A stretch of DNA of 61,590 nucleotides, filler included, from Malassezia furfur (taxonomy: Eukaryota): the NCBI GenBank assembly GCA_052055015.1. It is 8 parts of 8 records of this genome, joined end to end, with 100 filler letters (N's around TTAATTAATTAA, not from the genome) between each part and the next. Parts side by side here need not be neighbours in the genome. Positions count along the whole stretch, not along the records: positions 23,388 to 31,019 come from JBQJIT010000491.1; 7 more parts are not named here. One strand, given 5' to 3'. The notes under the pieces are model-generated. The model was not told the origin of the DNA and ran no database searches. It saw only the letters and a list, made by a program, of their open reading frames with translations. Shown here piece after piece: positions 23,388-31,581 of the stretch. Each line of letters begins with the position of its first letter. Position 1 is the stretch's first letter. Both the position numbers and the translations under genes were made by a program.

Positions 23388-24721
23388 TCTCGAGCGTGAT
23401 CAGCCGGCGTCCCCACTTGCCAAAGTCCTGCAGCGAGTGCGCGACGAGCGTAAAGTGGGGGTGCGTCGGGATCGGCGTCTCGTGGTTCTCCTCGTTCATC
23501 GTCGGCAGCCAGAACACGAGACGGCCCTCGGGCTTGAGCAGCGCCGACGCATACTCGAGCAAGTCGGCCGTGAGGTGCGACAGCGGGTACGGCTTCGTAG
23601 GCGGTACATAGTCAGGCAGCGTGTGCGACAACGTCCCATCGGGCATCACAAACGGCTCGTCGCGCTGCTGCGCCGCATCGCGCTTTCCAAGCCGCTTGGC
23701 CCCAGCACGTACACCATAGGGGGCTGTGTCAGACTCACACACACGTACGATCCGTGACGATCGCATCAAAGATGCCGCCGCCGCCGCCCTCGCAGAATGG
23801 CGCGCGCCACGGCGCATGCGTCATGTCAAACGTGATCGTGTCCAAAATTCGTCCGGTCAGCCCGTACTGCTTCGCGCTCAGCGCAATGCCGCGACCGCCA
23901 TGCTTGTCCTGGCGCCCGCGCAGCATGCGCCCGTCGATGTCGCTGCCGAACGAGAACGCGCCCAGCATGGAACACGCATACAACATCGAGCCCGTCCCTG
24001 CGAAAGGGTCGTACACAAACTTGGACGGGCCCGCAAGCGCCATGTTGGCCATCACGACACTCATTTCGCTCTCCATACTCGTATTCCCAATGTACTGCCG
24101 CTTCTTCAGGCTGAGCTCGTCGATCAGGTCACGCGCAGGTACACGCCCGGTTCGGTCCTTGATTTTCCGCCCAAAGAAGAGCTGCACCAGGCGGGGGTCC
24201 TGATCGCCTTGCGGCGGAGGCGCTGAGCCTGCATCGTGCGAGCGCACATACTCCTCGATTACGCCCCACGTCAAGTCTGCGCCTTTCATGCGCGTCGGTC
24301 CGGGCATGTCCATGTAGCCGAACGACTCGATCAGCTCCAGCCGACGTGCATCCGAGATGGCCGCATTGAAGCCCTGCATGAGCGCTTTCCACGAGACGTC
24401 CGGCCGACTGAATGCCGCATATGGCTTGGTGGCCTGGTTTCGGGCATGCAGTTCGGCATACGTATCCGCACAAACCCACAGCTGCCACACAGCCCGCAGG
24501 CACGAGCACCGGCCGAGCAGCTCGCGCGCAGCGTCGTCCGACGGCAAACGGCAGAGCACAAAGGGACGCTGGTCAGGCCGCACCGAGTCGAGTCGCGACG
24601 GCGTCTCGAGCAGCTCATAGGGAATGCCAAGGTACTTCGCCGAGGCCGCAAACTCGGGCAAGCGGAAGTCGGTGTGCGACTGCGCAAAATGCAGCACGTA
24701 CACCGGCGAATCTTCGTCCAT
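23388..24721 (-). CDS. TRM11: tRNA (guanine-10-N2)-methyltransferase catalytic subunit (3' truncated); intron 23724-23748
   Basis: FAQSHTDFRLPE, LKKRQYIGNTSMESEMS, VYDPFAGTGSML, GSDIDGR, FDAIVTD|PPYGVRAG (restored by splicing), GRLVFWLP. Confidence 0.94.
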
Positions 24722-24755
24722 GGTCGCTGAGTGGAGGTGCTTGCTCCACTTGACC

Positions 24756-26476
24756 ATGTTTGGCGCGCGTCTGGGGGTGGGTCGTGCGCGAAGCAGGACC
24801 CTGGGCCGCGCGTGTGCGCGCACAGTCGCACGGTTCGTGAGTCAGGTGCCACCCAAGCCCCTGGCGCAATTACAGCGGCTCCAGTCCTTTGTGGGGGAAG
24901 CATCGGCCACAAATAGCCTGCTCGAGAAGAAGGGCATCCTCTCACGCTACCCCGATCTAGTGCCCGTACTCGAGCGGTAGGTGTGCGACTAACCTAGGTT
25001 ATACCTGCGCTCCATGCGTTTTCATGTATCGTCTTCTGCCTTGCGCAAGTACCTCGAGCAGCACCCAGAGCCATGCGAAGAGCCGGAAACCCTGCCTCCC
25101 TCGCTCGAGTCTCTGTTGGATGCACTGAGTTCGCGCGCTGTCAAGGGCAACGAGGCGAAAGAGCTGCTGCGCGCATTCCTGCTGAAGTATCAGATTTTGT
25201 CTAGTCATAACCTGCCGACAGGTGCGGTACACACCTCTTCGCCGCTGCTTGATTTATTCTACCGGTGCCTCGATCGCAACCTCAAGGCGGGCATCTCGCA
25301 GAACTCGCTGCGCGATGCGCTCGCGTCTACGCAGGCGCACACTCGGACACAACAGTTCCTCGAGATGCTCCGCGCAACCGGCTCAGTCAATGCGTTCCCG
25401 ATGGACATTGCGCTTGCCCACATCGCGACGCCCAAGCGCCTCCAACACCTGCACAAGCATGCGCCGTGGTTTGTCTCGCGGAAGCTCGACGGAATCCGGT
25501 GCATCATGATTGTCTCCATCGACTGGACACAGCGCGACCCACGTGTGACCCACCTAGATACCCTGTCGCGCACGGGCCGCCCTCTGGGATCGCTTGCGTC
25601 GTTGCGTACGCAGTTGGCTAAGGATCTGGCCGCCTATCCGGACCTGGCTGGCCTGTGCGGTGCACGAGATGCACACGGCATGGCACATCTCGTGCTGGAC
25701 GGCGAGCTGTGTGCACTTCGGCCCACGGAGGATGCGCGCGGCGACGCCTACGTCGAGGATTTCCTACACACGCTCTCGGTGGTGCGACGACACACCGACA
25801 GCCAGACGCCGGTCGTCTTCTTCCCATTTGATGTATTGCCTCTCGATGCGTTTGTGTGCTGGCGCACCTACCTGGAGCAAGGGCGCGCACAGCCACTGCA
25901 GACACGGCTGGCGGCCCTGCAGGCATGGGTCGCTTGGTGCCTGGCAAACCAGCCTGCGACGTGCGTGCGGCGCCTCGAACAAGTGCGCGTGCCGGACATT
26001 ACGCCAGATGAGGTGGAACGCATGCTGGCACAGGCGATCGACAAGCGCTGGGAGGGGCTCATCATGCGCGGCGATGGGCCGTACGAGGGCCGGCGGTCGA
26101 ACGCGATGCTCAAGCTGCGTCCCACGCAGGAGGCTGAGTACGTCGTGCGTGAGGTGGTAGTGAGCCAGATGCGCTTGCCTCTGGCAGGGCACTACGAGGA
26201 GCGCCCTGCATTGTCGCGTACGTCCCCCCCTCACCCCGCAGACATTGTGATTGAGCACAAGGGCGAGCCGGTGTCGGTTGGCTCGGGATTCTCCGTGGCC
26301 GAGCGGTTGCGGTACGGCGCGCATCCAGAGGAGCTGCGCGGCAAGGCGGTGACGGTGATGTGTACGTGGTCCGCGACACTGACACAGACTACCAAGAATC
26401 GACCAAAGACCAGTCGTCTTCGCTACGATTTCCCATAGTCAAGGGGGTATACGGCACGGCCCGCCGCACCCTGTAA
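24756..26476 (+). CDS. ATP-dependent DNA ligase of compact phage/bacterial type with an Arg-rich putative mitochondrial leader; introns 24977-24997, 26218-26241, 26362-26387
   Basis: Motif I SRKLDGIRC, SRTGR, III DGELC, IIIa FPFDVL, IV WEGLIMR, V RRSNAMLKLRP, VGSGFS and VI SLRFP (restored by splicing). Confidence 0.85.
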
Positions 26477-31119: not shown

Positions 31120-31581
31120 TCGGCGCGTCGACCTCCGACCGGCGCCTCGCCGCCTCGTCCACCGATCGGCGGCCGGCCGCCTCGTCCGACCGGCGGCTGG
31201 GCGCGTCGACGACCGAGGCACGCGCGCCAAAGCGCATCCCCCTCGCAGTCAAGCGCCGGCGCGAGGCGTTCGCAGACGACATCATCGATACCATGCCGCT
31301 CGAGTACCGCAACGGCGATGCGGAGCAGCGGCGCCTGCTCCACGGTGTGATCCTGGCGCTGCTCTCGGCGGGCGACCAAGGCGTGCGAGGTACGTGTCTG
31401 GACTGACCCAGTGGCGGACGTGGCACACCCCCCGGACCTGCCCGCAGGCAAGGTGAACAAGGCACTCATCGCGCTGCTCGCCGCGAACCACGTCGTGCGC
31501 GTGTCGCAAAACGTACGTGGCCCACTGACCCAGGGCGTGGTGTACCGACTAAACACGGCGCGGCATACGACTCTACCGTAG
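31120..31581 (+). CDS. 3' fragment resembling the C-terminal extension of basidiomycete DASH/Dam1 kinetochore subunit; introns 31390-31411 and probably 31513-31533
   Basis: Spliced translation ...RREAFADDIIDTMPLEYRNGDAEQRRLLHGVILALL...VAHPPDLPAGKVNKALIALLAANHVVRVSQN/GVVYRL. The family is recalled from memory only. Confidence 0.5.

Follow-up and report, generated by a model that had tools for sequence, protein, structure and literature searches.

A phage-type ATP-dependent DNA ligase with a putative mitochondrial presequence in Malassezia furfur and related fungi

The upkeep of mitochondrial DNA uses a phage-derived polymerase, helicase and RNA polymerase, while the ligase of mtDNA is taught as a retargeted nuclear enzyme, and in yeast the nicks in mtDNA are sealed by a mitochondrial isoform of Cdc9/LigI. 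The enzyme type considered here is known, and a foreign origin of an organellar ligase has a precedent in kinetoplastids, whose ligase K, of prokaryote or virus type, works in the mitochondrion. A mitochondrial role is also described for LigIII (PMC7470946). Among solved structures, the best match to the present ligase, by profile as well as by structure, is Pmar-Lig of Prochlorococcus marinus (PDB 6RAR, 6RAS, 6RAU and 6RCE), and the same three-domain plan is found in T4 gp30 (6DT1; DNA-binding domain 5WFY) of PHROG 114. Eukaryotic ligase E, described from Adineta and Mortierella (PMC10665377), is likewise a foreign-acquired ATP ligase with PF01068 and PF14743.

The window, that is the whole stretch of 61,590 nucleotides analysed, is a chain of roughly 7.7-kb pieces of the Malassezia furfur genome with N spacers between them. 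The ligase gene was located on contig C491 (100% identity over 2001 bases) and comprises four exons at 24756-26476 which, spliced by coordinates, encode a stop-free ATP-dependent DNA ligase of 549 aa. The features, in window positions, are as follows.

24756..24839, plus strand: putative mitochondrial presequence, about residues 1-28, with seven Arg and no acidic residue, and a possible processing site near Arg26.
24756..24976, plus strand: exon 1, with the start codon, the presequence-like leader and the first helices of the DNA-binding domain; homologous sequence is present in P0009 and P0010.
24861..25330, plus strand: predicted helical DNA-binding domain of T4/Pmar-Lig type, about residues 36-185, with intron 1 inside it and approximate limits.
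24977..24997, plus strand: intron 1, 21 nt, GT..AG, with a branch-site motif and an in-frame TAG; its position is kept in the C98 copy.
24998..26217, plus strand: exon 2, with the rest of the DNA-binding domain, the nucleotidyltransferase domain and the start of the OB domain; the predicted catalytic Lys236 is at 25482-25484, and further motifs are at 25698, 25827, 26052 and 26106.
26218..26241, plus strand: intron 2, 24 nt, in frame and stop-free; its eight read-through residues are absent from P0002.
26242..26361, plus strand: exon 3, OB domain of PF14743 type (PF14743 being seen on full-length homologues), with VGSGFS at 26277.
26362..26387, plus strand: intron 3, 26 nt, frame-shifting, placed on the basis of P0002 homology and the C98 copy.
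26388..26476, plus strand: exon 4, with motif VI (SLRFP at 26420) and the stop codon.
23749..24721, minus strand: divergent neighbour, which we take to be a Trm11-like tRNA methyltransferase, with weak UPF0020 and N6_N4_Mtase matches below cut-off.

Removal of the three GT..AG introns gives a spliced frame of 1650 nt. The joints are read through by annotated Malassezia homologues, P0009 and P0010 at intron 1 and P0002 at introns 2 and 3, and this homology, together with conservation between the two genome copies, argues that the introns are spliced. An intron-blind gene call (P0001) has 474 aa and lacks both true ends, because a stop codon lies in frame within intron 1, intron 2 keeps the frame and intron 3 shifts it, just as the original prediction had it in stating that the ORF track misses both ends through introns. 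Several Malassezia annotations also miss exon 1, with the gene models P0002, P0005 and P0008 beginning past intron 1 and lacking the leader and first helices, and the leader has therefore been hidden. A search by regular expression found 42 candidate introns in the window, 24 of them 17-28 nt and most of these 21-26 nt in length with clear branch sites (for example at 31390, 31513, 34354 and 35202); introns of 21-26 nt such as those of the ligase gene are normal for this window. The start codons of the ligase and of the divergent Trm11-like gene are about 35 nt apart (24719-24756).

All of the nucleotidyltransferase motifs that had been listed earlier are present in the spliced protein, with KLDGIR at residue 236, DGELC at 308, FDVL at 351, EGLIMR at 426, MLKLRP at 444, VGSGFS at 493 and SLRFP at 532, while ATNSLLEKKGIL stands at residue 51. 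Motifs I, III, IIIa, IV, V and VI, including the catalytic-lysine position, are thereby accounted for, and the protein would be expected to undergo adenylation and to seal nicks. The K, D, G and R of motif I, the D, G and E of motif III and the L, R, F and P of motif VI are invariant in 41 aligned members. The PF01068 match of the spliced ligase is over the cut-off (E 1.7e-10), and no NCBIfam model reached its cut-off, seven giving weak matches. The absence of the large LigI-type DNA-binding domain, of the PIP box of Cdc9/LigI and of the BRCT domains of Lig4, claimed earlier, was confirmed: the PF04675 DNA-binding and PF04679 OB domains were unmatched by Pfam on the ligase, genome scans placing them only on C18, C255, C292 and C59; a strict PIP pattern was not found in the protein; and BRCT or zinc-finger domains were unmatched by Pfam, the protein stopping 13 residues past motif VI. 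However, the ligase does not lack a DNA-binding domain altogether, since 5WFY, the T4 DNA-binding domain on its own, is matched at E 8e-12 by the family profile, for which 35 eukaryote-like rows were combined with 58 viral or metagenomic ones. This match and the structural score with T4 indicate that the earlier impression of a T4-like N-terminal segment was right, and that the DNA-binding domain is of the small phage type.

The same profile matches Pmar-Lig at E 1.6e-59, T4 at 9e-38, LigIV at 2e-22, LigIII at 3e-13 and LigI at 7e-9. An AlphaFold model of the full-length Malassezia homologue P0009 (93-row alignment, pLDDT 90.5) contains about eight N-terminal helices, then a nucleotidyltransferase domain and an OB domain, and aligns end to end with Pmar-Lig 6RAR (Z 25.4, 401 residues, rmsd 3.2 Å, P0009 residues 23-526), while the Z values with other ligases are 25.3 for T4, 21.8 for human LigI, 20.3 for LigIII and 20.2 for LigIV; an earlier model of P0002 had the same top structural matches. 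PF14743 is matched by P0002 and, just below the cut-off, by P0009, P0031 and P0381 (E 4e-6 to 2e-5), and the genome scan with PF14743 gave no match at the phage-type ligase itself. The M. brasiliensis homologue matches PHROG 114 at E 1.8e-38. The predicted fold is that of a T4/Pmar-Lig-type ligase of the PHROG 114 kind, and not LigI or LigE-like, with the LigIII and LigIV structures scoring far lower against the model than Pmar-Lig and T4. Some family members give weak Pfam scores for RNA ligase and capping-enzyme models, and the phenotype cluster of the Cryptococcus orthologue, presented below, is mixed and does not point to mtDNA; both would suit an enzyme imported into mitochondria for a different substrate or task, for example at RNA-containing nicks or on mitochondrial plasmids. 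We consider this very unlikely, as the weak matches fall on the shared nucleotidyltransferase fold, and the family retains its OB domain, its motif VI and its T4-type DNA-binding domain.

The named homologues among the matches listed belong to Ustilaginomycotina, Tremellomycetes, Mucorales, Mortierellales and Calcarisporiella, with no ascomycete, agaricomycete or chytrid names and no kinetoplastid sequences among those matches; the M. brasiliensis homologue is 86% identical to the ligase. A total of 2617 representatives at E 1e-30 or better were obtained beyond fungi, these being proteins of 420-460 aa. Relatives are encoded on 526 of the 600 IMG/VR viral-contig stretches examined, and phage families account for 22 of the 34 ORFs next to nine viral loci, a sigma factor, an RNA ligase and a thymidylate synthase among them, while the nearest Atlas clusters are mostly Uroviricota. 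A single strict peptide pattern, run over 185,579 prokaryotic genomes, returned only 10 loci, all metagenome-assembled.

A 107-row tree was constructed with 50 of the 207 metagenomic rows drawn at random, eight named phages, and the host LigI and its paralogue as outgroup. It unites 34 fungal rows and P0077 in one clade (SH-aLRT 99), with separate basidiomycete and Mucorales subclades, inside a 97-row clade (SH-aLRT 99) otherwise made up of viral-contig and metagenomic ligases; the 97-row clade excludes the T4-like and Bacillus-phage ligases, and the host LigI and its paralogue stand apart from the phage-type ligases (SH-aLRT 100). A 71-row tree repeats the fungal clade with 22 rows (SH-aLRT 99), though both trees are quick LG+G4 searches without bootstrap and disagree on which group is sister to the fungal clade. 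In BLAST comparisons of the phage-type ligase with the host LigI and the paralogue, the E-values are 8 and 0.65. By tree, the ligase belongs to one fungal clade (Ustilaginomycotina, Tremellomycetes and Mucoromycota) nested among uncultured large-phage ligases, which points to a phage origin of the gene and to an uncultured phage clade, not a T4-like phage itself, as the likely donor. The original prediction thus held in treating the ligase as phage-type and outside LigI, on trees and Z-scores alike; equally, the ligase is a separate, intron-bearing and virus-like one, but it is no Malassezia oddity, being a member of an old family present in two fungal phyla. P0077 is a C-terminally cut member of the fungal clade with an apparently duplicated DNA-binding domain.

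Outside the fungal clade, the tree places the presequence-bearing P0263, whose best other match is EukProt Nk52_evm3s355, an identifier of the ichthyosporean Chromosphaera perkinsii (PMC6981761). P0263 and the Chromosphaera protein pair at 100. A constraint that groups the two with the fungal rows lowers the log-likelihood by 2.6 units, and the AU test, run on 36 rows with 5000 replicates, which is below the advised number, does not reject it (p-AU 0.47). The result is compatible with a single acquisition in an opisthokont ancestor as well as with two independent ones. The phage-type ligases of Chromosphaera perkinsii (P0443) and of its relative P0263 carry N-terminal extensions. In P0190, possibly a giant-virus protein, a phage-type ligase is fused behind a 2-cysteine adaptor domain, which is typical of giant viruses, and a giant-virus go-between is therefore possible.

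The second ligase copy, on contig C98, has 84% DNA identity to the first, keeps the ATG and all three introns, and has an open frame of 548 aa. The two proteins are identical at 456 of 549 aligned positions, and the 548 paired codons divide into 316 identical, 140 synonymous-only and 92 amino-acid-changing ones, the excess of silent over replacing codons pointing to purifying selection on the gene. That the closest non-eukaryotic relatives are viral might suggest that the gene is decaying, was inserted recently or is phage contamination; this reading, which we hold to be next to impossible, is refuted by the spliceosomal introns, the host-like GC content, the fungal neighbours, the two diverged intact copies, and the separate basidiomycete and Mucorales subclades.

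The leader had been described as Arg/Ala/Gly-rich and acid-free over about 28 residues, and residues 1-28 indeed hold seven R, five A, four G and no D or E, the first acidic residue being at position 48. The first 30 residues are acid-free and Arg-rich in both genome copies, with a hydrophobic moment of 0.79 in the C491 copy and 0.50 in the C98 copy, and the presequence-like character extends across the fungal family. Under a home-made leader rule, which asks for a net positive charge and no more than one acidic residue among residues 1-20, an N-terminal extension that is basic and acid-poor was found in 59 of 67 named fungal members vs 4 of 205 viral or metagenomic ones. Many of the fungal rows in this comparison are closely related to one another, and the length range of 400-470 aa by which the viral set was picked favours short N-termini. 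The fungal count started from 72 named proteins, five without the first helix being dropped (P0002, P0005, P0008, P0013 and P0014), which are probably truncated gene models, and the viral and metagenomic count from 207, of which two were dropped. An extension of at least 10 residues ahead of the phage start occurs in 66 of the 67 fungal members. Mucorales leaders are short with R-x-F/Y-S patterns (KRFYSS and RRLFST types, for example), a classic kind of mitochondrial presequence. Because so many fungal members and so few viral or metagenomic ones carry the extension, mitochondrial import of the fungal phage-type ligase is likely, and with all mitochondrial readings taken together, the features of the protein make a mitochondrial location highly probable.

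Four ligase types were found in the genome, each in two copies: Cdc9 (C18, C255), a LigI paralogue (C292, C59), the phage-type ligase (C491, C98) and a LigE-type ligase (C198, C322). That each ligase occurs as two diverged copies suggests that the assembly is hybrid or diploid. The C292/C59 pair was rejected as Lig4, its sequence being that of a LigI paralogue; it lies head to head with a Ku gene on both contigs. The LigE-type gene (L126:1480-3138, minus strand; L127) has a SWIM-like finger, adjoins SDH2 and was missed by the PF01068 scan, and its similarity to the phage-type ligase is faint (best E 9e-4 over 30 residues).

The main ATG of the host CDC9 opens onto a PIP-box-like motif and then acidic sequence in both copies. 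In frame, 57 nt before it, is an upstream start, ATG in C18 and GTG in C255 (L009:1901-1960; L008), located 45 nt from the divergent SMC2 start; the upstream frame is open in both copies and would add a basic 19-aa extension with four Arg, one Lys and one Asp. The yeast Cdc9 two-start arrangement is resembled by this upstream start, which could yield a mitochondrial isoform. Near-cognate starts produce mitochondrial isoforms in Cryptococcus (PMC7049704), the ligase gene not being found in the supplement of that paper. Asking whether the host Cdc9 has a leader, as the original prediction did, thus receives a divided answer, the main start lacking one and the upstream start possibly supplying it.

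The same region bears on the possibility that the phage-type ligase is the sole, essential mitochondrial ligase in Malassezia and that Cdc9 has no mitochondrial form. Such an arrangement would fit the main CDC9 ATG, the change of the upstream start to GTG in one copy and its closeness to SMC2, as well as the upstream ATG of the LigE-type gene, which is not preserved in the second copy of that gene. Nevertheless, the 19-aa frame is open and basic in both copies, near-cognate starts are used in Cryptococcus, divergent genes in this genome can sit 35 nt apart, and the Cryptococcus orthologue can be deleted, and we regard this arrangement as distinctly unlikely.

CNAG_02549, the orthologue in C. 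neoformans, bears no annotation beyond that of a hypothetical protein and is listed without a human orthologue. Its gene body has 10 insertion sites and it is ranked among the non-essential genes; CDC9 (CNAG_04278) is essential, and insertion sites number 62 in the LigI paralogue and 97 in Lig4 (PMC12136443). The same source reports many mitochondrial genes as essential, which counts against the mitochondrial reading, and CNAG_02549 is missing from its table of orthologues in three ascomycete yeasts. Under fluconazole, CNAG_02549 insertions are mildly enriched (log10 0.32, p 0.002, uncorrected), the direction that the paper reports for reduced mitochondrial function (PMC12136443). A PCR-verified deletion exists and drops out strongly in mouse lungs, with a mean score of -8.85 and a retest score of -13.5 against a threshold of -2, although the deletion strains were, according to the authors, not genome-sequenced (PMC11526942); CRISPR beta scores for the gene are about -4. 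The deletion falls in phenotype cluster 167, 'Potential novel cluster 70', a mixed cluster of at least 20 rows, and among the rows listed no gene is annotated for mtDNA upkeep or DNA repair (PMC11526942); a role in mtDNA thus gains no positive support from this cluster. Since CNAG_02549 is deletable and non-essential, and the host CDC9 has a possible upstream in-frame start, the phage-type ligase is probably not the sole mitochondrial ligase and may not replace Cdc9 in mitochondria. The gene matters yet is not strictly required, and a ligase that does most of the mtDNA sealing, or acts in times of stress, beside a backup therefore fits better than a sole one.

The dispensability of CNAG_02549 for growth would also accord with an accessory repair ligase that is mainly nuclear, its basic leader being a disordered or nuclear-targeting tail, and that might replace Lig4 here. 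Lig4 was not found in the genome by PF01068 and PF11411 scans, of which the former also missed the LigE-type gene and the latter had no positive control, while Ku70/80-type matches are present, and acquired repair ligases have a precedent in the ligase E of bdelloid rotifers and Mortierella (PMC10665377). On the other hand, the short Mucorales leaders are of presequence type, C. neoformans carries Lig4 (CNAG_07573) as well as CNAG_02549, the CNAG_02549 deletion lies outside the DNA-repair cluster shown beside its own (PMC11526942), and a separate LigE-type gene, only faintly similar, already exists in the Malassezia genome. A mainly nuclear role is considered unlikely.

The explanation that we favour, and consider probable, is that of a phage-captured nuclear gene which encodes a stand-alone nick-sealing ligase with a mitochondrial presequence and acts on mtDNA. 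The gene would have passed from a large tailed phage into an early fungus, or into an opisthokont before that, and would have gained a mitochondrial presequence and spliceosomal introns. The ligase would be imported and its leader removed; Lys236 would then be adenylated and the AMP passed to the 5′ phosphate of the nick, which would be sealed, with the helical, nucleotidyltransferase and OB domains encircling the duplex, as those of T4 ligase and Pmar-Lig do. Being a stand-alone ligase, it would not need PCNA or XRCC4, and it would complete mtDNA replication or repair, sharing this work with a backup that is most likely the longer Cdc9 isoform. From the observed gene structure, motifs, fold, tree and leader composition we infer the splicing, import, catalysis, substrate and backup ligase of this mechanism. 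A wider, tentative and rather doubtful version is that the opisthokont ancestor added a large-phage ligase to its mitochondrial replication kit beside the phage-derived polymerase gamma, and that Mucoromycota, several basidiomycete groups and Chromosphaera-like holozoans still use it as their principal ligase for mtDNA, whereas it disappeared from ascomycetes and animals, where Cdc9 or LigIII was retargeted; if so, the mtDNA ligase arrangements of yeast and human would both be replacements.

The family spans two fungal phyla, perhaps all opisthokonts, and if its predicted mitochondrial location is true, it may be an unrecognised virus-derived part of fungal mtDNA upkeep. A dedicated phage-type ligase in two fungal phyla would be the fourth viral part, and a further family of eukaryotic ligases. 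CNAG_02549 is also a possible antifungal target, because its mutant is strongly depleted in mouse lungs and no human orthologue is listed.

The proteins are already in databases as PF01068-containing hypothetical proteins (orthogroup OG6_142639), and the family of fungal phage-type ligases appears to be undescribed, no published account of it as a phage-derived or mitochondrial ligase being found in a literature in which subscription papers were thinly covered. PMC7470946 refers to a 'mostly fungal' NT-OB_2 group in which no DNA-binding domain is annotated, and to a Basidiomycota cluster left unexplained; either of these may be the phage-type or the LigE-type family mentioned in passing, while the family is not discussed in the examined text of PMC2806865. 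The Andalucia mitochondrial ligase was rejected as one of the same kind, as its partial sequence looks LigI-like.

In comparison with the known systems, the ligase shares with Pmar-Lig the helical DNA-binding domain, the nucleotidyltransferase domain and the PF14743-type OB domain, whereas Pmar-Lig is bacterial, is about 21-24% identical, has neither presequence nor introns, and lacks the lineage-specific loop insertions of the fungal ligases. T4 gp30 differs by an identity of 15-17% and by the position of T4-like ligases outside the clade of fungal and uncultured-phage ligases. The host LigE-type protein is encoded by a separate gene and has a SWIM-like Cys/His finger that replaces the helical domain. 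With the mitochondrial isoforms of yeast Cdc9/LigI and vertebrate LigIII, the proposed job, nick sealing in mtDNA, is alike; however, those enzymes are nuclear ligases with dual targeting that carry PF04675 and PF04679, while the phage-type ligase is the product of a dedicated gene of apparent viral origin, without PF04675, PF04679 or a PIP box.
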